Below, one piece after another: positions 4,794 to 43,769 of a stretch of DNA of 43,769 bases (position 1 is its first letter; each line of letters opens with the position of its first letter). Location of the stretch: the IMG/VR virus record IMGVR_UViG_3300031454_000011, positions 1 to 43,769 of that record; one strand, 5' to 3'. The notes under the pieces are model-generated. The model ran no database searches. It was given only the letters and a program-made list of their open reading frames with translations, and was not told where the DNA came from. Position numbers and translations under genes: made by a program. Origin of the DNA: a virus. Its lineage: Duplodnaviria; Caudoviricetes.

Positions 4794-7454
4794 ATGCAGA
4801 CATTAGTAAAATTTGCTCCATCAAAATACCAGCAAGCTATTTTTGATTTTGTTACAGAAGGCAGAGGCGATGCGGTAGTTAATGCCGTGGCTGGTAGTGG
4901 TAAAACTTCTACTCTAGTTGAAGCCTCGAAGCTACTGAGAAGCGACCGCGCTTTGTTCCTAGCGTTCAACAAACACATCGCTACTGAGCTAGAATCACGC
5001 CTTGGCAGGGCGATGGCGGCTAAAACGATTCACTCTATCGGTGTCGGGTGTTTGCGTTCCTACCTTCCTCGTGTAACAGTTGACGAATCGAAAATAGGCG
5101 ACATTAGTAAGCCCTACTCAATTGAGATAAGCAACCATCTAGAGAAGGCTTACCAGTTGCAACTAAAAGCTTGGTATAGAGATCCAGCAGGAGACCCGCC
5201 CCAAGAACCTCCTAACTTCGGCGTAGCAATCGGTTTGTTTAAAAAAATTGTTCATTTTATCCGCGTAACTCTTACTGATGTTAAAGATAAAGCAGCAGTG
5301 GAGGCTATGTGCGATCGCTTTGGTTGCATCGATGAGGGAGGGGACTTGGTTCCCTTCGATACTCTTTACACTTACTTGCCTACAATCCTTTCTGAGTGCG
5401 AACGCAACGCCGAGCGAGGAATTATTGACTACGATGATATGCTTTGGCTCCCCTACATTTGGAGCTTGCAGCCTCCTAAGTACGAATGGATTTTTGTAGA
5501 TGAATGCTTACCAGGAGATAGCTTAGTTACTTTGGCTGATGGCTCCCAACTACCCATTCAAACTATTGTTGAAAATCGGATACCAATATCAGTCTTGTGC
5601 TACAATGAACAAACATCCAAGATTGAAGTTAAAGCTGTAACAGGGTGGCGGAAAGTTCCGCGTCGAGGTCGTCAGATTATGCAGATTGGTAATCTGCAAG
5701 CGACTGAAGATCATCCTATTTACACAAAAGAATTTGGATATATCTCTATGAAGTCTGCATTGACTTATGGAGATGTTCACGTAATGGTTTTAAACAGTGA
5801 AAAAGTACGATCCGAGTGTGCAGTTAACGCATCGGGAGCAGTCGATTATCGTCGGTGGGCTACTTGGCGACGCATCAATCAGCAGGGGGGTTTGGAAGGG
5901 GAAACTGTGCAATGCCAGAGTAAGATTTATCCAAGGACAAGCACAGCTACCTTACCTAGAGTGGAAACAGTCAGAGCTACAGCGATGGGTAGGCACTTCG
6001 ATATCAACGACACCACAACAGACAGAGTATGGAGGGACGGTTTACCGTTTTGCAACTTTAACTCATCCAGTATTTACAGAAGTCTGTCAGTTAATCAAAC
6101 CGAATGGTGGAAAGAAACGAATAACTCAAGCACTTCTGCCATACCTTACCGATTTAGCTCTAGCAGTGTGGTTTATGGACGATGGATCGATCGGGTACTC
6201 GGATGCACGTATAGCTACCTATGCGCTACCAAGTCAAGATTTGGATCTAGTTGCCGATTACCTGACTCAAACTGGTTTAACTTGCAAGAGGATGGAGACA
6301 ACCAAGGGCAATATTCTAACTTTCACGGCAGTAGGGATGCGATCGCTAGAGAAAAGAATTGCGCCATTTATACACCCGTGTTTAGCGTACAAGATAGGGC
6401 AAACTGCACCAGGAACATGCGTGGTTTGCAGCAAGATTTTTTTAGTTCGCAAGATTTCGTCGCCATTGCGAACACCTCAGACTTGCAGCAGAAGTTGCAA
6501 TGTGCAGCTAGGACACAAAGCGCGGAGGTTGAACAAGATGAATGGGTCTATTGCTTAGATGTGGCAGATAATCATAACTTTTTTGCTGATGGTGCTTTGG
6601 TTCACAATTGCCAAGATTTGAGCGCTGCCCAGCTTGACCTAGTTTTAAAATTGCGCGCTCCAGGCGGTCGAATGTTGTTTGTCGGCGACCCTAAACAAGC
6701 TGTGTACGGTTTTGCTGGTGCTGATAGTGAATCATTCGAGCGAATCATCGAACGAACATCTGCAACTGTATTACCTCTTAGTATCTGCTATCGCTGCCCA
6801 GCTACTCATATTAAACTCGCTCAAGCTATCGTTGCAGAAATTGAAGCCAAGGAGGATGCGACTGAGGGCATCGTCGAAGATATTAAACCTAATGCAGTGC
6901 ATGAAATGATTAAGGAGGGCGATTTAATTATCTCTCGTTGCACCGCGCCTGTAGTTAAGCTTTGCATAGAACTGATAGCCAAACGCATTCCTGCTAGGGT
7001 ACGAGGGCGCGATATCGGTAAAGCTTTAACTACAATCGTCCGTGATGTAGCCAAGCATCCTGAATTTAGTTTTGATAAATTCGGTTATTACCTTGAGGAA
7101 TACGCAGACATCAGACTCAATAAGTTAAAGCAGAAGCGGAACAGCGAGGCTCAAATTGAATCATTTAGCGATCGCATCCAAGGCATTGAGGTTTGCTACG
7201 AAGCCTTTAATGCTAAGAGCCTAGGAGACTTGCAGCGAGAGATTGAGGCGCTGTTTAGTGATTCTCGCTCCTCTGTTATCTTATCTACCGTACATCGAGC
7301 TAAGGGACTTGAGAACGAGCGCGTATTTATCCTAGAGCCTGATAAACTCCCTCTACGGTGGATAGGTCAGCAAAAGTGGCAATTAGAACAGGAATTTAAC
7401 GTTAAATACATTAGTTTGACAAGAGCTAAAAGCGCTTTATACTTCATCAGATAA
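4794..7454 (+). CDS. UvrD/Rep-like SF1 helicase precursor containing an intein (mature protein ~518 aa)
   Basis: Walker A AVAGSGKT; Walker B VDE|CQD split by the intein; VGDPKQAVYGF, CYRC, STVHRAKGLE and YISLTRAK motifs. Confidence 0.92.
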   Translation: MQTLVKFAPSKYQQAIFDFVTEGRGDAVVNAVAGSGKTSTLVEASKLLRSDRALFLAFNKHIATELESRLGRAMAAKTIHSIGVGCLRSYLPRVTVDESKIGDISKPYSIEISNHLEKAYQLQLKAWYRDPAGDPPQEPPNFGVAIGLFKKIVHFIRVTLTDVKDKAAVEAMCDRFGCIDEGGDLVPFDTLYTYLPTILSECERNAERGIIDYDDMLWLPYIWSLQPPKYEWIFVDECLPGDSLVTLADGSQLPIQTIVENRIPISVLCYNEQTSKIEVKAVTGWRKVPRRGRQIMQIGNLQATEDHPIYTKEFGYISMKSALTYGDVHVMVLNSEKVRSECAVNASGAVDYRRWATWRRINQQGGLEGETVQCQSKIYPRTSTATLPRVETVRATAMGRHFDINDTTTDRVWRDGLPFCNFNSSSIYRSLSVNQTEWWKETNNSSTSAIPYRFSSSSVVYGRWIDRVLGCTYSYLCATKSRFGSSCRLPDSNWFNLQEDGDNQGQYSNFHGSRDAIAREKNCAIYTPVFSVQDRANCTRNMRGLQQDFFSSQDFVAIANTSDLQQKLQCAARTQSAEVEQDEWVYCLDVADNHNFFADGALVHNCQDLSAAQLDLVLKLRAPGGRMLFVGDPKQAVYGFAGADSESFERIIERTSATVLPLSICYRCPATHIKLAQAIVAEIEAKEDATEGIVEDIKPNAVHEMIKEGDLIISRCTAPVVKLCIELIAKRIPARVRGRDIGKALTTIVRDVAKHPEFSFDKFGYYLEEYADIRLNKLKQKRNSEAQIESFSDRIQGIEVCYEAFNAKSLGDLQREIEALFSDSRSSVILSTVHRAKGLENERVFILEPDKLPLRWIGQQKWQLEQEFNVKYISLTRAKSALYFIR
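5505..6608 (+). mobile_element. Intein (368 aa) inserted in helicase motif II
   Basis: Block A CLPGDSLVTLADG, block B ATEDHPIY, block F/G VYCLDVADNHNFFADGALVHN, followed by Cys+1. Confidence 0.93.
5797..6558 (+). CDS. LAGLIDADG homing endonuclease nested in the +1 frame of the intein
   Basis: Two motifs, IIVGGLLGDASI and LAVWFMDDGS, plus a C-terminal CxxC...CxxxC; GTG start. Confidence 0.88.
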   Translation: MKKYDPSVQLTHREQSIIVGGLLGDASISRGVWKGKLCNARVRFIQGQAQLPYLEWKQSELQRWVGTSISTTPQQTEYGGTVYRFATLTHPVFTEVCQLIKPNGGKKRITQALLPYLTDLALAVWFMDDGSIGYSDARIATYALPSQDLDLVADYLTQTGLTCKRMETTKGNILTFTAVGMRSLEKRIAPFIHPCLAYKIGQTAPGTCVVCSKIFLVRKISSPLRTPQTCSRSCNVQLGHKARRLNKMNGSIA

Positions 7455-11192: not shown

Positions 11193-11702
11193 CTATTTTT
11201 TAGGAACCCAAGCTTTACCAAACTCTTGCTTTCCTGCTTGCTCTGGCATCCCAGCGCGATTATTGAGCCTTACTACTTCCTCGCGTTCCATCCCTAATCG
11301 CTTCATTAGCTCCTCTTGTGAGACTCCAGCTTCTAAAATCTCGCGAATGATTTGCGCCATCTTGAGGACGGTATGAGTTCCCCTAGCGCGATTATGTCTG
11401 ATGGTACTTAGTTGACGATGTACCAAATCAGCTTTTACTTGAACTGTAGGTACTAAACCATTAGTTAAGCGGTAGATGCGATCATCGCTACTGACTAGCC
11501 AACGGTGATAACCATCGATAATTTGATACCTTTCATTTTGTTCGGGCAAAGTAACGATTGGTTGCGTCCAGCCATCTTCTAGGATTGAGGTTTTGAGTAA
11601 TTCAAGTTCTGTAGCTTGCACTCGGTTCGGATTATAAAGGTTCGGGTCTAAATCATCTCTAGATACCCAATTCACATTAGATATAGGTTGGTTATCAAAC
11701 AC
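11193..11702 (-). CDS. ParB/Srx-like nuclease-domain protein (IbrB-like)
   Basis: PNLYNPNRV...SILEDGWTQPIV...IIDGYHRW...STIRHNRARGTH. Confidence 0.88.
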   Translation of the reverse strand: MFDNQPISNVNWVSRDDLDPNLYNPNRVQATELELLKTSILEDGWTQPIVTLPEQNERYQIIDGYHRWLVSSDDRIYRLTNGLVPTVQVKADLVHRQLSTIRHNRARGTHTVLKMAQIIREILEAGVSQEELMKRLGMEREEVVRLNNRAGMPEQAGKQEFGKAWVPKK

Positions 11703-12870
11703 CTAATTCCAGCGCCTCCTCGTAAGTAATTCCTAGCTTTTTGCATTGGGCTTGGGCGTGTTTTAGTAACTGCCCGGCTTTTCTCCCTTTCAAGTCTCCC
11801 TGGTTGATACATTTAGCTATCCACTTCCAGCTAAGTCCTGTTAATGGGTCTGGCTCGGTTTCAGGGATGGTGCGCTTAGTTTTAGATTGATGTAGTTTAA
11901 TCATTCCAGCTACGCTTTTAGCTATCTGTACCTTATCTTCCGGTTCGTATAGTTCAATTAAGGAGTAACACCAATCTCGATAACGCATCCCTGGAGGCGG
12001 TTCTTTACTCGATGTACCATACAAATCTGTTAAAGCATACCTCCAGGCAGTAGCTACCCCATCTACGCGCGTTAGCATTTTCTCCCATAGGTCAGGGAAG
12101 CATTCGGCATACTGCCATAAACCGTTAAGCGGTTCTTCTCCAAAGGGCGGTGTTACGCGCTGTAAGTTCTTTGATATACCTACCATCGCTTGGATATCAT
12201 AATGGCGGTTATAGTCCCAGCCATGAAGCTGCGGCGCTATCCAGACATCATCTATCGACCAATCATAGACAGGACTTGTTGGGTAATAATTACCATACTT
12301 CCCTGCCGCGTTTTGACCTATCCAGTTATCAGTTTCGCGCCTAGTTACGCTTTGTAATCGCCTAATACTCTCAGCCGTCCTTATCCCTCGGATGCAAGCG
12401 ACGTTACCGTAGGGATGAGGCGGATACAGTAGCGCCATGATATCCGGTACATTCATCCCAATTTGAAAACCTGAGATACTGGTAATTGCTCCTATAGGTA
12501 GTTCTCTTACCCATTTGCTCCTATCATCAGGATGCCAAGGATACCAATAAGGCTGGCTTCTACTGCAAGCATTACGATGTTTAACTGGTACGCACACCCA
12601 TTTAAAAGTTACGTCAGCGCGCGATCGCACTCGCTCTAGATACTCCTCAGTTTCAAAAGTAATTGCTTCTTCATCAATAAAGCAAACTTCTAAGGGTAGT
12701 CGATTACGCTTATGAGCTACTTCCAACGCTAAATTCAGGCAAACTGTAGAATCTTTACCGCCGCTAAAGCTTACCATTACCGTATCGAATCTATCGTACA
12801 GTAGGTTAATTCGAGCGATTGCTGCCTCATAAACTGACGAACTGGTATGATGCTTTTTTAAACTAGGCAC
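11695..12870 (-). CDS. PAPS-reductase-like PP-loop protein (IbrA/DUF3440-like)
   Basis: SFSGGKDS, GIRTAESIRR, PVYDWSIDDVW and RVTPPFGEE motifs. Confidence 0.88.
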   Translation of the reverse strand: MPSLKKHHTSSSVYEAAIARINLLYDRFDTVMVSFSGGKDSTVCLNLALEVAHKRNRLPLEVCFIDEEAITFETEEYLERVRSRADVTFKWVCVPVKHRNACSRSQPYWYPWHPDDRSKWVRELPIGAITSISGFQIGMNVPDIMALLYPPHPYGNVACIRGIRTAESIRRLQSVTRRETDNWIGQNAAGKYGNYYPTSPVYDWSIDDVWIAPQLHGWDYNRHYDIQAMVGISKNLQRVTPPFGEEPLNGLWQYAECFPDLWEKMLTRVDGVATAWRYALTDLYGTSSKEPPPGMRYRDWCYSLIELYEPEDKVQIAKSVAGMIKLHQSKTKRTIPETEPDPLTGLSWKWIAKCINQGDLKGRKAGQLLKHAQAQCKKLGITYEEALELGV

Positions 12871-13564
12871 GAGTTTTTACTCTTTCTATTTTGGATGCTG
12901 AAACGCCATCTATCATCGTGCGATTGAGCATCGGGTGGTTCTCGTCGGTAGGACCATAGTCAGAATCAGGATGATAAGCGATTACTATTAATTCCTCATC
13001 TCTCGTACTAAACGAATGATACTCATCTTTTGGAATTAGAAATGCTAACCCTGGCTCTAGTGCAATACATCCTTCTTCAGTGACGCATTCTCCCCAACCA
13101 CTGACGACAACACCTGCTCTAAAACTTGGATGGGTATGTGGCGTTTGCTCGCAATGTGGTGGGAAGTACAGCGCGTTAAGGCATGGATCGCCTTCTATAA
13201 TAGGCGGTATCAATAAGGAATCAGAACAGCCATCGATGTACCGTAACCTACCATAGGGTTCGATAGGACCGCCAAAGGTAAACATCCCTTTATATCCTCT
13301 AGCCGTAATGATTACCCCTTCACCATCCCCCCATAGCGTCCCATTGCTAGGCAAAGCACAATACATCCCTGCTCCTAAGCTAAAGGTATAGGTAGTATGC
13401 GGATTATTCCAAACAGCGCGACCTGAATAGACGTAAACAAAATGGGTAGCATTACCAGTCAGATGCTTAATTTCATGCTTCCAGGTGTGCATTGTAGTCG
13501 GGATTTCATCATCTAGGTTTACAGATGAGCCATTTAATTGATAAGTGGTAAATGATTTATTCAT
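12863..13564 (-). CDS. Cupin-domain protein
   Basis: QTPHTHPSFRAGVVVSGWG...HSF metal-binding cupin motifs; also LRYIDGCSDSLL. Confidence 0.82.
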   Translation of the reverse strand: MNKSFTTYQLNGSSVNLDDEIPTTMHTWKHEIKHLTGNATHFVYVYSGRAVWNNPHTTYTFSLGAGMYCALPSNGTLWGDGEGVIITARGYKGMFTFGGPIEPYGRLRYIDGCSDSLLIPPIIEGDPCLNALYFPPHCEQTPHTHPSFRAGVVVSGWGECVTEEGCIALEPGLAFLIPKDEYHSFSTRDEELIVIAYHPDSDYGPTDENHPMLNRTMIDGVSASKIERVKTRA

Positions 13565-14204
13565 GGTTTAAATAATCCTGTACTATTGCATCTAACGCTT
13601 CTGCTGTCGTCTCTAATCCATGCTTACTTTTTACTTCATTTATAGCTAAAAATAACCTTTCTCGCTGCTCTTGGCTCAATAAAACGTGAAATGGTAGCAA
13701 ATCTGATTGCTCTCCAGTTTTCTCTACTTCTACGCGCTTTTTATCTTCTTTGGTTGGCTCGTTTCCCATTCCTTCAAAAGCAGCTAAATCAAAACTATCG
13801 TTAACTAAAGCAAGTTCAGTTTCATTCCAGAGGTTAGTAGAGATGAGCAAGTCTATATCAGCCGTAAGTATATCTGCATCCCAGCTTAAATCTAACTCTC
13901 CAATTCGGTTATCTGAGTACGCCAGGAGTCGAGCGCGATCGTCTTCCTCTAGGTCTAAATCATCTCTGACTACTACTACTAACTTATCGCCTTGGGTATG
14001 GACTAGCTCAGTTTCTAATCCTAGTTCTAGCGCTTGCTCATAAGTCTTATTACCTGCTAAAAGCGTCCCGTTGCGATCGCATAAAACAGACCTACCCGCT
14101 CCTAGCTGCTCTAATGATTCGCGCAACAGTTGCTTGCCTCTATTCGTCCCCTTGTTAGCATTAAATTCATCAAACTTCAGAGTCAACTTTTCTTTACTAG
14201 CCAT
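13557..14204 (-). CDS. ParB/Srx-like N-terminal domain protein (type often fused to phage methylases)
   Basis: NANKGT.RG...SL..LGAGRSVL.D...LAGNKT...DNRIGEL..WD. Confidence 0.7.
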   Translation of the reverse strand: MASKEKLTLKFDEFNANKGTNRGKQLLRESLEQLGAGRSVLCDRNGTLLAGNKTYEQALELGLETELVHTQGDKLVVVVRDDLDLEEDDRARLLAYSDNRIGELDLSWDADILTADIDLLISTNLWNETELALVNDSFDLAAFEGMGNEPTKEDKKRVEVEKTGEQSDLLPFHVLLSQEQRERLFLAINEVKSKHGLETTAEALDAIVQDYLNHE

Positions 14205-15465: not shown

Positions 15466-16143
15466 CTAGCTCCAGTTAGGACGACCAAAGCCCTGGATTA
15501 CGCCCATTGGTCTTACCCTACGTTGCACTTGTCCCCCATTTGAATTATTTGAGGCGCTGGTGTTGCCCTCAATTGTAGTAACTGTCCCGTCAGAGTTAAC
15601 TTTTTCTACAATGCCTACGTGGTCGGAGATACCATCTTTCTGCCAATCGAAAAATACTACGTCCCCAGCCTTGGGCTGCTTAAAAAACTGCCCTTTATCT
15701 CTGAACCATTTTACACCATAGGGGCAGTAAGCAAAGCCTTTAGGGGTAGTAGCAGGCAACGGCAGCCCCGCGTGGTAAAACACCCACGATACCCATGAAG
15801 CACACCAAGGCTGCCCTTGCGCCCCATACCAAGCTCCAAATTTACTTTTGTTGCTCCCTGCTGGAGATTCAGAGTAGCCTAGGGTTGATGCGGCTAGAGC
15901 TAAAACAACACTTGGAGTACACCGTACTTTTTCCATCAGTTTTTTGGCAGTAGTAGGGCCTAAGTAATCCGGCTCTCCTAAACTATTTGATTTCTTAAAA
16001 TGATAGAAAGCTGTCAATGTTTGCGGACCACACTCGCCATCTACATCTACACCAAGTCGCTGTTGAACTGCTTGAATAATGTCAAGCGATGCGTCTACTA
16101 ATTTTATCTGCGTAGTAATTGTTTCTAATATATTCGTAGCCAT
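15466..16143 (-). CDS. Endolysin: peptidoglycan-binding domain plus CHAP amidase
   Basis: VDGECGPQT binding motif; PWCASWVSW, DHVGIV and TIEGNT CHAP motifs. Confidence 0.9.
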   Translation of the reverse strand: MATNILETITTQIKLVDASLDIIQAVQQRLGVDVDGECGPQTLTAFYHFKKSNSLGEPDYLGPTTAKKLMEKVRCTPSVVLALAASTLGYSESPAGSNKSKFGAWYGAQGQPWCASWVSWVFYHAGLPLPATTPKGFAYCPYGVKWFRDKGQFFKQPKAGDVVFFDWQKDGISDHVGIVEKVNSDGTVTTIEGNTSASNNSNGGQVQRRVRPMGVIQGFGRPNWS

Positions 16144-16149
16144 AATTTT

Positions 16150-16176
16150 AAAAAAGCCCCGGTAACAAATCGGGGC
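16150..16176 (-). terminator. Terminator-like hairpin immediately upstream of the endolysin
   Basis: Minus strand reads GCCCCG-ATTTGTTAC-CGGGGC-TTTTTT. Confidence 0.6.
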
Positions 16177-16213: not shown

Positions 16214-16384
16214 TTATGATTTATCTATCTTTTGTTTTACCCGCAAACTTCTAATTAATTCTCTTAATATTTCTGTCATAGTGCGCCCGTTTTGTTCGCA
16301 GTAACTAATTAGCAATATCCGCTCGTCTTCAGGCAGGTTAAAGGTTATCTTAGTCATGCCCTTGGGAGGATTGTGGCTAGGCAT
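16214..16384 (-). CDS. CopG/RHH-family regulator, 56 aa (not in ORF track)
   Basis: MPSHNPPKGMTKITFNLPEDERILLISYCEQNGRTMTEILRELIRSL fits a ribbon-helix-helix. Confidence 0.8.
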   Translation of the reverse strand: MPSHNPPKGMTKITFNLPEDERILLISYCEQNGRTMTEILRELIRSLRVKQKIDKS

Positions 16385-16391
16385 ACTAATA

Positions 16392-16467
16392 AAATATGTA
16401 GTAACTACTAACTTAATACTAACTATATATGGCTGAAATATGTAGCAACTACTAATAATATTAGTAG
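16392..16467. promoter_or_regulatory. Operator-like repeats between the RHH gene and the pilin operon
   Basis: AAATATGTAG(T/C)AACTACTAA at 16392 and 16436, each containing GTAG-N3-CTAC; also the palindrome CTACTAAT-AAT-ATTAGTAG. Confidence 0.65.
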
Positions 16468-16536
16468 CACGTTAAAACCACTGATAGGTTAATTTTTTAA
16501 ATGGGTAAGTTTTGCTTATGAACTAATGCAAAACTT

Positions 16537-17058
16537 ATGATTAATACGCTTATTTTGAAACTTGCTTTGCCATCTAAAAAAGATGGCGGCTTTACCCTTA
16601 TTGAGCTTTTAGTTGTCATTGCCATAGTTGGAATTTTAAGCGCGATCGCATTACCTTCGATGCTCGGTCAAGCTTCCAAAGCCAAAGAAGTGCAAGCTAA
16701 AACAACAATCGCTAGTGTAAACTCCGCTCAAAACGCCTTTCGTACCGAAAACACTTCCTTTGCACCAGATATAGACACTTTAGCCCTTGGGGTGCCTACT
16801 GACACGGCTAACTATGTCTTTGATGTTGTAGGAAAAGCGGACACAGCAACAATTACAGCTACACCTAAAGATAGCGCTTTAAATGGCTATGTTGGCGGAG
16901 TAGTAAGATATAGCAATGAAGGAAATAGTGCGATCGCTACAATAGTTTGTAAAACGAAAGTTTCGGGAATTACAGCGCCAGTCCCGCCTACTTTAGATTC
17001 AACCCAAACCACACCAGAAAAGGCGGCGGCCTGTGATAAATCGCAGGAGAAATTGTGA
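16537..17058 (+). CDS. pilA: Type IV pilin, cyanobacterial PilA/G-H type
   Basis: Prepilin cleavage motif G|FTLIELLVVIAIVGILSAIALP, then KAKEVQAK...SAQNAF...YVGGV and a C-terminal Cys pair. Confidence 0.9.
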   Translation: MINTLILKLALPSKKDGGFTLIELLVVIAIVGILSAIALPSMLGQASKAKEVQAKTTIASVNSAQNAFRTENTSFAPDIDTLALGVPTDTANYVFDVVGKADTATITATPKDSALNGYVGGVVRYSNEGNSAIATIVCKTKVSGITAPVPPTLDSTQTTPEKAAACDKSQEKL

Positions 17059-17417
17059 TGTCAGGACTTGACAAAACAGAATCAGTTGTTCCCTACGGCT
17101 GCGAACAATGCCCAAACAAAAGCAGTACCAATTGTGCTGTAGAAATACAGAAGGCGAGTGTGAGTCGGACTGACGAGAGATCCCAAGGCAGAGGTTACTC
17201 TTACCTAATTGTGTTTGTTATCAGCGCTTTTATGGGGCTTCAAAGCATCGATTTGAAATTTAACAAAAATGATTCTTGGGTATTTTCTACCAAAGAAGTG
17301 CCGTTTACAGTGGTCGTCCCAGGACTCGTATTAATTGCTGGAGTCATGGGATTAGATACGTCGGCGATCGCCCTTGGGATTGGTAACATCTTGACCAGTG
17401 GTAGGAGAATTGATTAA
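17055..17417 (+). CDS. Two-TM membrane protein (pilus accessory or holin-like)
   Basis: Two hydrophobic segments and an N-terminal CxxC; start overlaps the pilin stop. Confidence 0.65.
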   Translation: MMSGLDKTESVVPYGCEQCPNKSSTNCAVEIQKASVSRTDERSQGRGYSYLIVFVISAFMGLQSIDLKFNKNDSWVFSTKEVPFTVVVPGLVLIAGVMGLDTSAIALGIGNILTSGRRID

Positions 17418-17451
17418 TGGCTAACAAGAGTGCTATTTCAGGAGCTAAACC

Positions 17452-17955
17452 GTGACTTACCTAGCTGAAATAGTACAGCTTTCGCACTTTGGGCAGAAGG
17501 TACGCGCCAAGCTACTCGGCGTTAAGCGCTCTGATGGTTTATGGATACAATCCGCGCAAACCATTGTAGAACTCCCCTACTCTAGGGTTTGGCACGAGCA
17601 GCAATTAATTTTGCTTGAACTAGACAAGAGAGGGAATGTAGAGGTGGCAGTCTCTGCTAACGAGCGCTTGAATAAAGCTTTGCAGGAGTGGAGTTTAAAA
17701 GCATTCCAATTTGATACACGTAAAGGTGACCTTGATGAAAAGCATGAATCTTTAAAGTATCAATCAGCCAAACTATTGAAGCGTGAAGCCGACTTGAAAC
17801 GTCGCGAGGAACTGCAAACTATTCTTGAGAAACAGTTGCAATCTCTTGAAGAAAAAGTACAGGAGAAACTTGTCGCTGTCGAGATTCAACACGCGGCACT
17901 TACTGAGGCTTGGAAGCACGTCCATTACAAAGAACAGCAGCTAAACGAAGGCTAG
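17452..17955 (+). CDS. hmpF: Truncated HmpF-like protein (N-terminal domain plus short coiled coil)
   Basis: M.YLAE...KLL...RSD..W...LLEL....V...ESL.YQ...RE...L..AW.H matches my recollection of the cyanobacterial HmpF N-terminus; GGAG RBS. Confidence 0.72.
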   Translation: MTYLAEIVQLSHFGQKVRAKLLGVKRSDGLWIQSAQTIVELPYSRVWHEQQLILLELDKRGNVEVAVSANERLNKALQEWSLKAFQFDTRKGDLDEKHESLKYQSAKLLKREADLKRREELQTILEKQLQSLEEKVQEKLVAVEIQHAALTEAWKHVHYKEQQLNEG

Positions 17956-17984
17956 GTACGGGGGCAATACCTTTTTTTCTTTTT
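17954..17984 (+). terminator. Terminator-like element closing the pilin operon
   Basis: AGGTA...TACCT followed by a long T tract. Confidence 0.45.
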
Positions 17985-18103: not shown

Positions 18104-18472
18104 TCAAGGACGATAAGCAGCGCAAGCATAGTAAATCGCACTAGCTATTACGCTATCATCATCAGCTTGCTGAATCGGGAACTCGATACCATTAGGAGGA
18201 GGGGAAGGGATGTTATTGATTGCTAGTTTTTGATACTGAAAAGCTAAGGTATTACATCCTGCTACTATACGAGCGCTCGTCAATTCTTGAGCTTCTACTA
18301 ATCGCATATCAAACTTTACTAAAGTGCTGCTTTTATCAATACTCTGCTCATTGATAAAAACCGACCCGCTCGGTGTAGTTCCTAAATTTACCCATATTGG
18401 ACTAGATAAAGCTACATCGCTCATATTTATTAAACTCGTACAAACTGCTACTGCTAATAATTTTAACTTCAT
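18104..18472 (-). CDS. Secreted/periplasmic protein
   Basis: Signal peptide MKLKLLAVAVCTSLI...VALS; W..LG...F.N..SI pattern and two Cys. Confidence 0.7.
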   Translation of the reverse strand: MKLKLLAVAVCTSLINMSDVALSSPIWVNLGTTPSGSVFINEQSIDKSSTLVKFDMRLVEAQELTSARIVAGCNTLAFQYQKLAINNIPSPPPNGIEFPIQQADDDSVIASAIYYACAAYRP

Positions 18473-18582
18473 TTTCTTTTACTGTTTGCTTATGCTACAA
18501 GCGTAACTAACGCATCATTAAATACATATCAGTAGCAGTACGGAATTACAGTTAAGATACGATAAAGATTTTTGGTAAAACT

Positions 18583-19098
18583 ATGGCAATTGGCAAGTAC
18601 GGTATTAGTCGATTTCAAAGCGCAATTGAAACATCAAAATTGCCGCCACAAGACCAACAAAACCCCGTTTACAATAACAACTCAAACAGCAGCGCAAACA
18701 ATACCTATCCTTATAATCCGCCTAAGCAGATGGCGCAAGAGCCAGTAATTACAGGCAATGATGGAGCGCAATCATCAAAACCTGAGCCAGCCGAGCAAAA
18801 CTATGGCAGTGGCGTTCTAAAACTGCAAGCGAAACTTGCTAACCTATCTTTGCAGCGCGACGTACAGCAACCGCAAACGCTTCCAAATCCTGATACTAGC
18901 GGAAATATGAGCATCTCTAAACAGCAAAACAATATGCAAGATGCTAATTACAAAGAAATGATTCCTTACTTGCAGAAGCAAGCTAACAAAGATTTTAATA
19001 GAATGGCGCTCTATTCAGCGATGTCTAACTTAGGTAGCTCAATTAGTGGCGCAAATGCTCGTTACCAAGAGTATTGGAGCGGAGGGTTAGTTAAATGA
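18583..19098 (+). CDS. N/Q-rich low-complexity protein, possible internal virion protein
   Basis: Amino-acid composition; coupled to the downstream repeat protein. Confidence 0.6.
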   Translation: MAIGKYGISRFQSAIETSKLPPQDQQNPVYNNNSNSSANNTYPYNPPKQMAQEPVITGNDGAQSSKPEPAEQNYGSGVLKLQAKLANLSLQRDVQQPQTLPNPDTSGNMSISKQQNNMQDANYKEMIPYLQKQANKDFNRMALYSAMSNLGSSISGANARYQEYWSGGLVK

Positions 19099-20105
19099 GT
19101 TTTTTAGCAGGAGCAGGATTAAACTTACTAGGCGGATTGTTCGGCGGAGGTGCGCGAAAAAAGGCGGAAAAACGCGCTGCTCAATACCGCCAGAAAGAAG
19201 CAGCGCAAAACTTTGGCTATACCCAACAACTTCAACAGGGACAACTAGGCTCGGAGGAGCGTAGAGCAACGGAAGCACAGCAAGGAGAAACAGGTAGACT
19301 TGGGATGCAAATCGGTTCTACCGAACTTCAGCAAGGTAGACAAATTGGCTCTACTGAACTTCAACAACGTAGGAGTATTGGAAGTCAGCAATTAATGCAG
19401 CGAGTTTCTGAAGCTGGGCAAACAAGCAGACTAGGGATGCAAGAATCCGGTTTAGCCAGTCGTTTAGGGGCGCAAATTGGATCTACTGAGCGTTTGCAAG
19501 GTAGAGATATCGAAAATCAGCAATTAATGCAGCGACTTAGCGAGTCTGGTTTAACTGGTAGACTAGGAATGCAAATTGGTTCTACTGAGCGAATAGCAAG
19601 TGAAGCTCAAACAGGTGAGACGCAACGGCTAGGAATGCAAGAAAGCGGATTAGGAGCGAGGCTTGGTTTGCAGCTAGGCAGCGAGGAACGTAGAGCAAGC
19701 GAAGCTCAAGCTGGTGAGACGCAACGGCTAGGAATGCAAGAAAGCGGATTAGGAGCGAGACTCGGTATGCAAACAGCATCGACTGAACGCATTGCAACTG
19801 AAGCGCAAACTGGAGAAACTGGTAGACTCGGTATGCAAACAGCATCTAGTGAACGCATTGTAGGAGCGCAACAGGCTGGAGAAACTGGTAGGTTAGGGAT
19901 GCAAACAGCATCGACTGAACGTATTGCAACTGAAGCGCAAACTGGAGAAACTGGCAGACTAGGTATGAATTTAGAAAATCAGCGATCGCTCCAAAAATCA
20001 AGCTTTGAAAATCAATCGCGCCAGAAAGCTCAAGATGCTGCTAGAGCTAGATTATCGTTTGGAGGTAGGTATGGGGAGCAGCGAGGGCAATATGGGAGGT
20101 ATTGA
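19095..20105 (+). CDS. 11/22-aa repeat protein, putative DNA ejection/pilot protein
   Basis: Gly-rich hydrophobic N-terminus (LAGAGLNLLGGLFGGG) followed by many GETGRLGMQ-xxS-TERIA-xEAQ repeats. Confidence 0.65.
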   Translation: MSFLAGAGLNLLGGLFGGGARKKAEKRAAQYRQKEAAQNFGYTQQLQQGQLGSEERRATEAQQGETGRLGMQIGSTELQQGRQIGSTELQQRRSIGSQQLMQRVSEAGQTSRLGMQESGLASRLGAQIGSTERLQGRDIENQQLMQRLSESGLTGRLGMQIGSTERIASEAQTGETQRLGMQESGLGARLGLQLGSEERRASEAQAGETQRLGMQESGLGARLGMQTASTERIATEAQTGETGRLGMQTASSERIVGAQQAGETGRLGMQTASTERIATEAQTGETGRLGMNLENQRSLQKSSFENQSRQKAQDAARARLSFGGRYGEQRGQYGRY

Positions 20106-23881: not shown

Positions 23882-24247
23882 GTGAGAAAGAAGCCTAAAG
23901 AGAGATTTAGAGCGATCGCAGCAGCCGTAACTACCTGGGCGGGTTCTCCTCCAGCTACGATAAGTGCGATTTTAAGTATTTTGGCTTGGGCAGCGCTCGG
24001 CCCAGCTATGAAATTTAGCGAATCATGGCAACTCTGGGCAAATACCGGAACTACGATCGTTACTTTCTTGATGGTTTTCTTTATCCAAAACTCGCAAAAC
24101 CGCGATTCTAAAGCGATTCAAGTTAAACTTAATGCAATTCTAGCCGGGCTTGATGGAGCAAGTAATAAGCTGATAGATTTAGAGAATCAAGCAGAAGATG
24201 AGCTAGATGAAGCTGTAGAAGAAATTAAACAATTTAGAGAGAAATAA
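23882..24247 (+). CDS. Low-affinity iron permease (Fet4-like) family membrane protein
   Basis: WQLWANTGTTIVTFLMVFFIQNSQNRDSKAIQVKL signature. Confidence 0.85.
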   Translation: MRKKPKERFRAIAAAVTTWAGSPPATISAILSILAWAALGPAMKFSESWQLWANTGTTIVTFLMVFFIQNSQNRDSKAIQVKLNAILAGLDGASNKLIDLENQAEDELDEAVEEIKQFREK

Positions 24248-24255
24248 GGATTAAA

Positions 24256-24705
24256 ATGGGTATATTCGATATTTTCAAGAAATCAGAATCCGAACCCGAA
24301 CCAGAACAAACCGAACCAGAACAACCGCAAATAGAACCAGAAATTTTACTAGCACCCGTCGCGCTAGAACCTGAACAGCCACAACCAAAGGAGCAAAAAA
24401 TGTCAGAAGTTTCACAACCCCCTACTTCGTCAGAGTTGCCGCCAGGACACCCGGGAGAGCCTACAGCAGCAGCAAGTTCTAGTACCGATATAGGAGCAGA
24501 ACAGAAGACTACTGAAGCTGTAGTACCTGTTTTTGACCCTAATAAGGTAGAGCAGCTACCTAAGTCCTATATCGATACTCAAGTAGAAGTTACGGATAAG
24601 GCAGAGCAGCTTACTGAAGATAGAGGAGAAAAAGCGACTGAGGAAGTTAAAGCAGCCGAGCAAGTTCAAACTTTTGAATCTAAGTTAGAGAAAGGAGCAG
24701 AGTGA
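24256..24705 (+). CDS. E/P/Q-rich disordered protein
   Basis: Amino-acid composition; AAGGA RBS. Confidence 0.7.
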   Translation: MGIFDIFKKSESEPEPEQTEPEQPQIEPEILLAPVALEPEQPQPKEQKMSEVSQPPTSSELPPGHPGEPTAAASSSTDIGAEQKTTEAVVPVFDPNKVEQLPKSYIDTQVEVTDKAEQLTEDRGEKATEEVKAAEQVQTFESKLEKGAE

Positions 24706-26957
24706 GCTTAGAAGCATTAATTGATAGTGCAGTAAATAGAGATGGGAAGAGTGGCGGCGAATCTACTGTAGTCGCGGTAGATTTGCAGCAAAAAATTGAG
24801 TTTTCAGTTAGAGGCGGCGCGATTGAATTTTTTCCTTTACAGGATGATGAAAAAGATACGAGACGGAAGTTTATAAATAAAATTTTCAAGGATAATCGTC
24901 TTAGCCAGCGCTTAGAATATGCAATGGCATTGTTTCTAACTAAAGGCGAAATCTTGTGGTTAGTTTTGCCTGATGACGAGGGGAACTATCTAATTGAGTT
25001 TTTTCACGGCGGAGCTACAAATAGCGATCCTGAGTACAAAGTTTTTTATAAATCAGGCGGTCGTAAAATTGATAGCGTAATCATTACTTACGCTTACAAA
25101 ACTAGCGCTCCCTTTGGCAATTTTGAGATTGAGCGCTGGGTAAAATTGACGCTAACTGAGGACTGGATTGAGCAAGCCGATTTACCAAGCAAACCGAGTT
25201 TGTCAGGAAGTATTAACGCGCTGTCCTCTGATGGCGCTCCCGTAAAAACTGAGCGCTATCCTAACCCGTTCGCGCCGACAATCCCTGTCGTCATCTCAGC
25301 AAATAACCCTAAACGGACAGGACAGCCAGGCACCTCCGATTATCACTGGCTAAAAAATCAAATTGAAGGTCACGAGCGCGATATCGGACATATCCGGCGC
25401 AATTTAAAGTTTTTTGGTAATCCTACGTTAGTTACTACTAGATCGCCTTCTGAAGTTACTGAAGCCGCAGACAGAGGTTTGCACGTCCCTACCTGGTCAT
25501 CGCAGCAAGGCTATACCGATGGGTTCGGCGATGGCTACTCGCGGAGTAGTAGAGTAGCTGACCCGCTTAGTCGATACGCGCCAGGACAAGGCGGCGGCGG
25601 CAACGAGCGAGTAGCACAAATTATCGGAGGAGTAGCAGAAGGTGAAAGATTTGGTTACATCATGCCTGACCCGGTTACAGGCGACCTTAGCCAGTTTGCG
25701 CGCCAGGAGCGTGAGCTTATCCATTATGCTCTTGGCGGTATTGACCCGCTCGGTATGTCGTCTGGAGCTACAGCTTTCGAGATTAAAACACTTTTTGGAC
25801 GAGTTGAAAATACAGCAGACGGCAAAGCAGACGGACTCTACACGCATGGATTAACGCTAGTTTTTGAGCAAATCCTTTACTTTGAGGAGAAAATGTTCAA
25901 GGATTCTCTATTCGTAGGGATGATTGAAGCTGAACCAAAGAGATGGCCCAAACTTGTAGATCCCTCGCAAATATCTGACGAAATCTCTCAAGTAATTTAT
26001 CAAACATACCTTGAGGGAAAAATAAAGCTATCTCAAGAACCTCAAGGGATAATGCCACTAGGCGATCGCACTGTTAACTGGAGATATACACGCCCAGTCT
26101 TTAAAAATTCTACTAGAGAGATGTTAGACCTTAGTATCGCGGCTCGTAATGCTAGAGAAGATGGTTTATCTCAAGAGTATTGTCTGAGGTTGCAACACCC
26201 AGATATGACTGATAAAGAAATCCAGAATGTGATGAGCGGATTTAGCCCCAGAGTAGTAGAAGGAGCTAGTAATTCTATCTCAATACTAATACAATTGTAC
26301 CAACAGTTTATGCAACTTCCCGATCCACTAGATCCAACAATAGCTTGGGGAGCGCGATTAAATGTTGGGGAAATGCTCGAACAAGGATTGTTAACTTTAT
26401 ACAAAGAACTAGCTTATGGTAAACCAAAATACGATCCAGCCCAGTCCAGCCCAACAATTAATGCAAGCGCCGCCGAACTACGGATACCAGGGGGAAGCAG
26501 TAGCATACAGCCAAGCGCCCCAACAGCAGCAGCCGCAGCCGCCGCAGCAGCAGCAGCCGCAGCAATACCAAGCTACTTACCCGCAGATCCAGCCGCCTCA
26601 ATGGTCGCCTATGGCTTACCCGCAACCGCACCAATTCCCAACTCAGCAGCAACCCAGCCAGCTTACGGAACTGGGCAAGATAGTAGACTTCTTTCGGGAA
26701 CGGGACAGCCGTACGCAATCCCCGCTCCAGGCGCAACCATCAACCCAACCGCTAGATCAGTTCAGCCCTATGGGTACGGCGCAAATGGTAGCAGTTCCCA
26801 GTCAGGCATTCCATCAGGAGTACCAGCAGAATTTATCAGCAATCCCCTCTTATGGAGTCTCTACGCCCCTCAGTACGGCTACGGCTACTCCGATGGCTCA
26901 GATGGTTCCACAGGTTCAGTTGCTAACTCAAAGCGTCGCTCCTCCAAGCGTAAGTAA
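24702..26957 (+). CDS. Probable portal protein
   Basis: Size and position between terminase and scaffold/capsid; NLKFFGNPTL motif; low-complexity tail. Confidence 0.7.
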   Translation: MSLEALIDSAVNRDGKSGGESTVVAVDLQQKIEFSVRGGAIEFFPLQDDEKDTRRKFINKIFKDNRLSQRLEYAMALFLTKGEILWLVLPDDEGNYLIEFFHGGATNSDPEYKVFYKSGGRKIDSVIITYAYKTSAPFGNFEIERWVKLTLTEDWIEQADLPSKPSLSGSINALSSDGAPVKTERYPNPFAPTIPVVISANNPKRTGQPGTSDYHWLKNQIEGHERDIGHIRRNLKFFGNPTLVTTRSPSEVTEAADRGLHVPTWSSQQGYTDGFGDGYSRSSRVADPLSRYAPGQGGGGNERVAQIIGGVAEGERFGYIMPDPVTGDLSQFARQERELIHYALGGIDPLGMSSGATAFEIKTLFGRVENTADGKADGLYTHGLTLVFEQILYFEEKMFKDSLFVGMIEAEPKRWPKLVDPSQISDEISQVIYQTYLEGKIKLSQEPQGIMPLGDRTVNWRYTRPVFKNSTREMLDLSIAARNAREDGLSQEYCLRLQHPDMTDKEIQNVMSGFSPRVVEGASNSISILIQLYQQFMQLPDPLDPTIAWGARLNVGEMLEQGLLTLYKELAYGKPKYDPAQSSPTINASAAELRIPGGSSSIQPSAPTAAAAAAAAAAAAAIPSYLPADPAASMVAYGLPATAPIPNSAATQPAYGTGQDSRLLSGTGQPYAIPAPGATINPTARSVQPYGYGANGSSSQSGIPSGVPAEFISNPLLWSLYAPQYGYGYSDGSDGSTGSVANSKRRSSKRK

Positions 26958-27672
26958 TGAGGTTGCGAATTTACAAAATGCCAATCAGCAGTTGAATGAT
27001 GCAGTAATGCAACTAAAGCAACAACTGCAACTAGCAAACATGGGGTTAGAGGTAGCTACTGAGTTTAGCCAAGGGCAGCATCAATTAATCAACTTGCTTT
27101 CTACTTTTGTGATGGGAGAAACAGCTACTCGTGAGCTTTCCGAAGGACAAGATAAGTTAATTGAGTTTCTAGCTGATTTACTTAGCGATGCAGATTACTT
27201 GCTTTACTGGGCTTTTGAGATTTGGCATCAAGCAAAGCCATCTCCTCAATTTATGGAGATACTTAGCGATGCTTACCTAAAACTTTCAGAGATGCACCCG
27301 CCACAAAATCAGCCCAGTAACGAGCAAAGCGCATTAAATCGAATTGCTCAAGGTCAGCAATCAGTTAACCAGATGTATGCAAACCCTTTGCAGCCTGCTC
27401 AAACTGTTCCTGTCCAAGTTGGAATTCAGCCATCAAATGAACTCATGCAATTATCACAGATGGCAGCAGCACAACAGCAACAGCAGCAGCAATTACAAGG
27501 TTTCATGCGCCCCTCGGTTCCTGCTCCTCCGATACCTTCCCAAAATGGAAATGGTAACGGATGGAATGGAGTAAGGCAAAATATGCAAAGTGGTAATACT
27601 TTGCAAGCATTGCGAGAGGTCGGTCAGTTGTCGGCTACTGATTGGCGTGAAATGTTCAGTACACAAAACTAA
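26416..27672 (+). CDS. Q/P-rich putative scaffolding protein
   Basis: Low-complexity ends around a helical core; lies upstream of the capsid gene and overlaps the portal by 542 nt. Confidence 0.6.
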   Translation: MVNQNTIQPSPAQQLMQAPPNYGYQGEAVAYSQAPQQQQPQPPQQQQPQQYQATYPQIQPPQWSPMAYPQPHQFPTQQQPSQLTELGKIVDFFRERDSRTQSPLQAQPSTQPLDQFSPMGTAQMVAVPSQAFHQEYQQNLSAIPSYGVSTPLSTATATPMAQMVPQVQLLTQSVAPPSVSNEVANLQNANQQLNDAVMQLKQQLQLANMGLEVATEFSQGQHQLINLLSTFVMGETATRELSEGQDKLIEFLADLLSDADYLLYWAFEIWHQAKPSPQFMEILSDAYLKLSEMHPPQNQPSNEQSALNRIAQGQQSVNQMYANPLQPAQTVPVQVGIQPSNELMQLSQMAAAQQQQQQQLQGFMRPSVPAPPIPSQNGNGNGWNGVRQNMQSGNTLQALREVGQLSATDWREMFSTQN

Positions 27673-43485: not shown

Positions 43486-43769
43486 ATGGCTAATGGACAT
43501 GGATACACAACGCAAGGGGTTAAAGATTTAGCCAAAATTATCAAGCAAGCGCGTGGCTTCCTGAGCTATCGCGATTTTGAAATCTACTTGAGCGAACGAC
43601 TAGCTGAAAACGGAATTAAAGGCAAAGTTCCATTTAGCACATTGCGGAGAATAGAAATGTGCGATTTTTCGCCTGGCTTTGGGCCTGACTACGATACCCT
43701 AGCTAAAATTGCTTACGTTACTCCTTACACGATTGAAGAATTGAGCGCGATAGCTAGGGAGCGAAGTCT
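43486..43769 (+). CDS. 5' part of the junction-spanning XRE-like HTH regulator
   Basis: Open from the ATG at 43486 to the end of the window; continues to the TAG at 243-245. Confidence 0.8.
   Translation, partial: MANGHGYTTQGVKDLAKIIKQARGFLSYRDFEIYLSERLAENGIKGKVPFSTLRRIEMCDFSPGFGPDYDTLAKIAYVTPYTIEELSAIARERS
43643..43769. repeat. Terminal direct repeat (circularity overlap), copy 2
   Basis: Identical to 1-127. Confidence 0.95.

Follow-up and report, generated by a model that had tools for sequence, protein, structure and literature searches.

Three genes lie on the plus strand of the locus. They encode a prepilin, a small protein with two membrane segments (2TM protein) and a 167-aa protein related to the cyanobacterial pilus protein HmpF (mini-HmpF). 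They are preceded by a candidate promoter, two direct repeats and a divergent gene for a likely ribbon-helix-helix (RHH) regulator, beyond which a predicted terminator and an endolysin gene are located (Table 1). All open reading frames (ORFs) were found where the initial annotation had placed them. The window, that is, the whole stretch of 43,769 nucleotides analysed here, represents an entire virus record with direct terminal repeats, its first 50 bases occurring again at 43643.

Table 1. Positions of the genes and sequence elements of the pilin module and its immediate neighbourhood.
Feature	Position	Strand	Remarks
Endolysin gene	15466..16143	-	CHAP, Pfam E 2e-16; PHROG endolysin E 6e-36
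Predicted terminator	16150..16176	-	GC hairpin and T-run, separating the endolysin and RHH-like genes
Likely ribbon-helix-helix regulator, 56 aa	16214..16384	-	divergent from the pilin operon
Two 20-nt direct repeats	16392-16411, 16436-16455		GTAG-N3-CTAC palindromic core; candidate operator
Host pilA-type (SigF-type) promoter match	16482..16511	+	TGATA-N16-GGGTAAGTT; predicted
Prepilin, cyanobacterial PilA (Pilin_GH) type	16537..17058	+	full-length, 18-aa leader, E5 intact
2TM protein, 120 aa	17055..17417	+	family not matched; holin-like size and position
Mini-HmpF, 167 aa	17452..17955	+	homologous to HmpF residues 1-180
Doubtful terminator	17956..17984	+	T-run after a weak hairpin, -3.1 kcal/mol

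Genomic setting of the module

Based on Pfam and PHROG matches, the window encodes a terminase, a major head protein, tail proteins, helicases and the CHAP endolysin. For one virion structural protein, the sole cultured match was to Synechococcus phage S-EIVl (30%). The HIP1 sequence (GCGATCGC) is present in 29 copies compared with 0.3 expected and, because of this richness in HIP1, we take the host to be a cyanobacterium on general knowledge. A tyrosine integrase was looked for across the window and none was found, so residence in the host is an assumption for this phage. Among the related loci described below, the L015 record is classified as a provirus and L134 adjoins an integrase. The endolysin, which also shows a weak match to a peptidoglycan-binding domain, is encoded divergently from the pilin module, and an endolysin gene occupies the equivalent position in L002, L015 and L175. 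Its relatives in IMG/VR were located at seven loci, none of which carries parts of the module.

Several other features were observed in the window. On the minus strand, genes for a ParB-like protein, a cupin, a PAPS-reductase/DUF3440 protein and another ParB-like protein follow each other (11193-14204); this row resembles the IbrAB-type pair and might serve in DNA modification or defence. The plus strand carries a gene for a UvrD-like helicase with an intein match (4794-7454), a gene for a 336-aa protein with repeated GETxRLGMQ-type units (19095-20105), which has no family match and is possibly an ejected (pilot) protein, and, straight after the terminase gene, a gene for a low-affinity iron permease family protein (23882-24247; Pfam E 1e-40). 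Two further long plus-strand ORFs (24702-26957 and 26416-27672), read in different frames, share ~540 bases; the true start of the latter may be located further downstream, or a frameshift may occur.

Pilin, membrane protein and regulatory elements

The prepilin matches the Pfam families Pilin_GH (E 1.4e-26) and N_methyl (E 1.2e-9), and the intact G|FTLIE cleavage site recognized in the initial annotation is confirmed at residues 18-23. It has the features of a major pilin, namely a short leader, the G|F site, E5, a hydrophobic N-terminal helix and a globular head. Over the N-terminal 55 residues, it shares 60-67% identity with host pilins, whereas host pilins share 86% with one another; its head shows 26-40% identity to host heads, compared with a host-host mean of 38%. 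A search of IMG/VR with the window pilin by itself yielded no relatives. Among 80 IMG/VR pilin loci, four are HIP1-rich full-length matches, and mini-HmpF is encoded in one of these four records. In the other three, the promoter core described below is likewise absent from the 350 bases 5′ of the pilin gene. The HIP1-bearing phage or provirus records L179, L180 and L181 (at ~4900-5500) encode a host-like PilA pilin and lack both mini-HmpF and this core.

The start of the 2TM ORF overlaps the pilin stop codon (GTGA), suggesting translational coupling, and its two hydrophobic segments begin near residues 51 and 82. This agrees with the coupled two-segment membrane protein postulated earlier.

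The divergent RHH gene of the initial annotation stands in part. The ORF is present at its position, and a similar small ORF is found in its place in L002, L015 and L175, but the profile match to RHH comes from the L002 copy only and stays below the cut-off (RHH_1, E 0.002; 18.3 bits compared with a curated cut-off of 20.5). The window protein, to which the L002 homologue is 51% identical over 39 aa, has no Pfam match at E 0.01 (DUF6290, E 0.012). Judged from these similarities, it is likely a ribbon-helix-helix regulator.

The operator-like repeats reported upstream of the operon proved to be real, since none of 300 shuffles reached the 20-nt repeat at 16392 and 16436, and its core occurs nowhere else in the window. 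A comparable repeat is present in one of three relatives (L015; 3/300 shuffles). The repeats do not represent NtcA boxes because their spacing is N5 instead of N8. Elsewhere, an inverted repeat (18444-18463 / 18520-18539; TACTGCTA / TAGCAGTA) separates two divergent genes; it is similar to the GTAG/CTAC-rich candidate operator, and the regulator might bind here as well.

The predicted terminator that separates the endolysin and RHH-like genes has counterparts consisting of a hairpin and T-run in L002 and L175, and L015 shows a hairpin without T-run at this place. The terminator-like element at the end of the operon, as assumed before, is doubtful: its hairpin is poor, the terminator scan did not call it, and no T-run follows the mini-HmpF gene in L002, L003 and L015.

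Mini-HmpF is homologous to the N-terminal part of HmpF

The suggested resemblance of the 167-aa protein to HmpF was borne out by a profile comparison: mini-HmpF matches the NCBIfam model of HmpF, NF038350, with E 2.8e-14 over the N-terminal third, residues 1-166 aligning with positions 1-180 of 553. Its score of 52.4 bits is below the NF038350 cut-off of 200, and the protein is therefore not an HmpF equivalog. HmpF homology was also detected in all 11 close homologues of mini-HmpF. Identity to the nearest full-length HmpF is 28%, and mini-HmpF and the HmpF N-terminus share YLAE, W32, a W/S-L-x-x-Q stretch and an AW-x-x-L motif (near residue 167; in the window mini-HmpF near residue 153). In the AlphaFold model (mean pLDDT 83, pTM 0.40), residues 1-68 are predicted to form a small beta domain and residues 69-166 a single long helix. 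A fold search of the PDB at E 0.001 gave no match; its weak top rows were mostly ribosomal and single-strand-binding proteins, which we take to be OB-type barrels and treat as a lead.

HmpF (NF038350; Pfam PF28019), with about 550-590 aa, is homologous to phage mini-HmpF over its N-terminal 180 positions, whereas the 167-aa phage protein lacks the remainder and does not adjoin a chemotaxis-like system. As described in PMC12288463, hmpF mutants form no pili, and HmpF has Hfq and PilT as interaction partners and sets the active pole. The protein is reported to move to the leading pole (PMC12288463, PMC9239167). HmpF homologues were described to interact with themselves and each other and to co-purify with PilB (PMC7002697). 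The initial annotation had tied HmpF to filamentous, hormogonium-forming cyanobacteria, but according to the same source its distribution is wider and not confined to such hosts (PMC7002697).

Searches for relatives of mini-HmpF in IMG/VR (with the close alignment and, separately, with subfamily A8), by a GTDB pattern scan, and among INPHARED phages and PLSDB plasmids found none. A word-index search, which is a weak method, gave no longer forms, but a later profile search recovered them. Among 1.84 billion representatives this search yielded 176 matches. The best 150 of these include full-length HmpF, which is thus recovered by a profile of the short proteins, as well as many short proteins with 26-38% identity to their nearest full-length counterpart. 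The short proteins kept in the group share 26-44% identity with full-length HmpF and frequently stop after the same motif. An origin of the short matches as mere HmpF fragments at contig ends fits only some rows with 44-85% identity, and these likely fragments were excluded from the short group.

Phage-type proteins are distinct from short host paralogues

In one cyanobacterial order, 388 of 401 genomes contain a match, most of them two, and in a second order at least one match is present in all 57 genomes; the second copy is the short paralogue described next. A tandem pair of frames, each of full-length HmpF size, was observed in G596:C59. Most cyanobacterial genomes searched also harbor a short chromosomal HmpF paralogue of 139-179 aa, which has valS as a neighbour in most cases read (L100-L103, L158, L161, L163, L165, L167, L169, L172 and L177). 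No published name or description of this paralogue was found, in searches not aimed at it alone. Other chromosomal derivatives of the HmpF N-terminus are lineage-specific, comprise 140-290 aa, and are located near dnaK/proS or nif-like genes or carry a different C-terminal extension (L159, L160, L162, L164, L166, L168, L170, L171, L173, L174 and L176). Short HmpF-like proteins are thus not restricted to phages but are also carried by host chromosomes, and since hosts have a short HmpF paralogue of their own, a short form need not be inhibitory.

Like phage mini-HmpF, the host paralogue consists of the N-terminal domain and a short coiled coil. Unlike mini-HmpF, it forms a separate branch (100/99), lacks the AW motif (0/7) and resides in a housekeeping neighbourhood. 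The window protein scores 53.7 bits on a profile of full-length N-termini and 13.9 bits on a paralogue profile, which together with the tree rules out that it is the valS-linked host paralogue. This unrooted tree contains 30 rows, picked without the long branches seen earlier. A branch with 100/99 support sets apart all phage-type rows (five with known context, six without); the valS-type proteins form another branch (100/99) and the full-length N-termini a third (62/86). Topologies that place the L134 subgroup in one or the other host class were rejected (p-AU 0.008). Phage-type short proteins are highly diverse among themselves, and long-branch attraction among the fast-evolving rows may contribute to their branch. 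Two of the 401 genomes were found to carry phage-type copies; they belong to the same family of 28. For genomes with three or four matches, 20 regions surrounding the additional copies were listed; one is phage-type (L175) and the others listed look chromosomal.

Conservation of gene order

Apart from the window itself, nine loci that carry a phage-type mini-HmpF were examined; L003-L006 closely resemble L002 and do not count as independent. The entire order, with the endolysin and RHH-like genes divergent from pilin, 2TM and mini-HmpF genes, is present in L002, L015 and L175, and mini-HmpF identity to the window is 46% in L002 and 35% in L015. Across these three loci the order remains constant despite exchanges of endolysin type and 2TM family. 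The linkage in related phages, named as a check in the initial annotation, is therefore found. The short contigs L003 and L004 carry pilin, 2TM and mini-HmpF genes in this order, and the upstream region is unreadable in L005 and L006. At positions 1-340 of L006, the mini-HmpF start is inversely duplicated, probably by misassembly.

A different arrangement is found in L133 and L134, two prophage-like stretches of one genome, in which the genes for 2TM, mini-HmpF and endolysin lie on one strand without a pilin gene; the mini-HmpF gene of L133 is broken. Hence, two of the seven non-self loci with readable upstream region lack the pilin gene and the promoter directly upstream. For the dedicated system of pilin and HmpF proposed earlier, the linkage in several loci is favourable, but L133 and L134 do without the pilin.

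A homologue of the window 2TM protein is present in L015 (hhalign 98.6%), and a second, unrelated 2TM family occupies the slot in L002, L175, L133 and L134. Neither type matches a holin family. A search of IMG/VR with the 2TM alignment gave no relatives, and the atlas gave no usable match. The protein shows the traits of a class II holin in being small, having two membrane segments and lying close to an endolysin, and among the 80 ORFs scanned, no other one up to 220 aa long had two hydrophobic segments called. The 2TM and mini-HmpF genes adjoin an endolysin gene in all six long loci, which represent four endolysin types. In L134, a tail fibre gene and the 2TM, mini-HmpF and endolysin genes follow each other on a single strand.

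The pilin operon is preceded by a pilA-type promoter motif

A bipartite motif, TGA(T/C/A)A-N16-17-GGGTAAGTT, was identified upstream of all four pilin operons with a readable 5′ region. The downstream box lies 34-41 bases before the pilin gene or, in L002, 170 bases before an inserted HNH gene, and the variants TGATA, TGACA and TGAAA are found 16-17 bases further 5′ across the four operons. The inserted HNH/AP2 endonuclease gene (L002, 5564-6538) is located between the pilA-type promoter and the pilin gene. In shuffled spacers, the frequency of the 9-mer GGGTAAGTT is 0.0003-0.0015 each. Upstream of 16 host pilin loci examined, GGGTAA is present in nine and both boxes in eight. Searching 1.82 Mb of loci with the two-box pattern, which had been defined after the sequences had been seen, gave 19 matches: 8 at host pilin genes, 5 rows from 3 related operons, and 6 elsewhere. 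Within the window, the match at 16482 is the only one on the plus strand, and the single minus-strand match lies inside the pilin gene. By itself, GGGTAAG shows no enrichment (7 in the window compared with 3.8 expected); it is the position and the second box that carry weight.

All four operons contain a –12 element GGTAA within GGGTAAG (16503-16511 in the window). The window sequence TAGGT shows one mismatch to TAGGC, the –32 element of Synechocystis pilA1, at a roughly matching distance. An exact match to a SigJ box was absent. For Synechocystis pilA1, a –12 element GGTAA with an overlapping TAAGTT has been described, and only SigF is reported to read this promoter (PMC2532724). In Nostoc punctiforme, pilA is described as the sole characterised hormogonium gene stringently dependent on SigF, and the SigF regulon as very small (PMC6495340). 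Because the phage motif matches both the host pilin promoter and the SigF-specific core of pilA1, the phage operon is likely expressed alongside host pili. The pilA-type promoter thereby gives independent support to a pilus-related role of the module. Within the open-licence literature in PubMed Central and bioRxiv, no use of a SigF promoter by a phage was found.

Discussion

Phage pilins are already known, including from marine cyanophages. The marine Synechococcus phages ACG-2014f (PHROG 3433) likewise encode a pilin, but pilins of this type match the N-terminal third only and belong to genomes of ~200 kb, whereas the window pilin is full-length; no mini-HmpF match was found in the phage collection that contains ACG-2014f. 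P-FimU and P-PilA are prophage type IV pilin-like proteins that are described to enter the host pilus; P-FimU stops adsorption of related phages, phage FimU proteins keep twitching intact, and PilA-like genes are reported in Xylella prophages and other phages (PMC12952977). In the main text of that paper, “cyano” has no occurrence. The module described here differs from these proteins in its major-pilin type, its cyanobacterial phage, its operon with a homologue of a motor regulator, and its host pilA-type promoter. The prophage proteins Tip, Aqs1 and Zip are reported to bind PilB or PilZ and thereby lower pilus assembly, leading to superinfection exclusion (PMC11656802). Going by their descriptions, they are set apart as small peptides of Pseudomonas phages, whereas mini-HmpF is homologous to, but shorter than, an activator of the host itself that is specific to cyanobacteria. 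No phage-encoded HmpF homologue was found in the open-licence PubMed Central and bioRxiv literature. In marine Synechococcus, cyanophages are described to bind pili (10.1101/2025.09.20.677514).

By analogy to P-FimU and to Tip and Zip, the module could interfere with the pilus as a phage receptor and thereby exclude superinfecting phages, using cyanobacterial parts; we favour this reading, with chances that we regard as evenly balanced. Host SigF would read the operon along with host pilA, at a level set by the RHH-like protein, and processing of the phage pilin would fall to the prepilin peptidase of the host. The processed pilin would enter or jam the fibre, altering the surface that phages bind. 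Since ~400 C-terminal residues are missing from mini-HmpF, whose N-terminal beta domain is retained along with the first coiled coil, it would compete with HmpF, either for HmpF itself or for its motor partners, lowering pilus activity. From the pilin-less prophages L133 and L134, mini-HmpF would appear late with the lysis genes and damp pili before release. Receptor interference is supported by the conserved order of the endolysin and RHH-like genes and the divergent pilin, 2TM and mini-HmpF genes, together with the promoter. It is weakened by the lack of a pilin in L133 and L134, by the lack of mini-HmpF in three of the four HIP1-rich pilin records, and by the phage pilin head, which is hardly more divergent from host heads than these are from one another. 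A holin-like 2TM protein in a SigF-driven operon is also hard to reconcile with a harmless lysogen.

This last point leads to lysis as a function. The 2TM protein could be a holin and mini-HmpF a lysis accessory that, for example, places or times lysis at cell poles or septa, which we consider unlikely; a pilin and SigF-type promoter added in some lineages, tying lysis to the piliated, motile stage, is an equally doubtful extension. Unrelated holin families commonly fill one slot, as the two 2TM families do here, and the constant place of 2TM and mini-HmpF beside four types of endolysin, the single-strand arrangement of L134 and the uniqueness of the 2TM protein among the 80 ORFs all point to lysis. 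However, neither 2TM type matches a holin family, the endolysin gene lies on the opposite strand in four loci, in three of them behind a predicted terminator, and the retention of an intact pilin is left unexplained.

The intact, cleavable pilin and its host-type promoter also fit a cassette that alters host behaviour, with mini-HmpF as a switch uncoupled from the Hmp chemosensory system and the pilin supporting or modifying pilus function. Gliding, biofilm formation or DNA uptake might then be changed in favour of the phage; for both the switch and its outcome, we judge the probability to be low. The short paralogue retained by hosts suggests that a short form may act positively, yet a coiled-coil protein that has lost two thirds of its length is more often non-functional, and the late, pilin-less arrangement fits poorly. 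HmpF is described to determine the active pole (PMC12288463), and twitching is kept with phage FimU proteins (PMC12952977), both in line with altered behaviour, but the phage pilus proteins described so far act in exclusion (PMC12952977, PMC11656802). That the genes are independent captures in a variable region beside the endolysin, without any joint function, appears very improbable. Pilin without mini-HmpF in three of four records, mini-HmpF without pilin in L133 and L134, the broken L133 copy and the HNH gene inserted in L002 would agree with it. Against it, order, coupling, RHH-like gene and promoter persist while mini-HmpF identity drops to 35% and neighbours are swapped, and the phage-type proteins make up one branch.

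A resident cyanophage could also be wired into the SigF pilus programme of its host and take over the motile, dispersing stage, with mini-HmpF and pilin halting or redirecting movement or lysis being timed to this stage, which we put forward tentatively as a somewhat unlikely possibility. If true, this would represent phage control of cyanobacterial developmental behaviour, going beyond receptor masking.

If receptor interference is true, it would extend pilus-directed defence of phage against phage to cyanobacteria. The design would be new in that the host's motor activator serves as the source of a decoy and is combined with a replacement major pilin, both activated by the host's pilus sigma factor. 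It would implicate type IV pili as receptors for HIP1-rich cyanophages, which lack a close cultured relative in the collection searched. The natural truncations of 130-170 aa in phages and about 140-180 aa in the host paralogue would bear on how HmpF activates the pilus motor, and mini-HmpF might provide a tool for turning off cyanobacterial motility.
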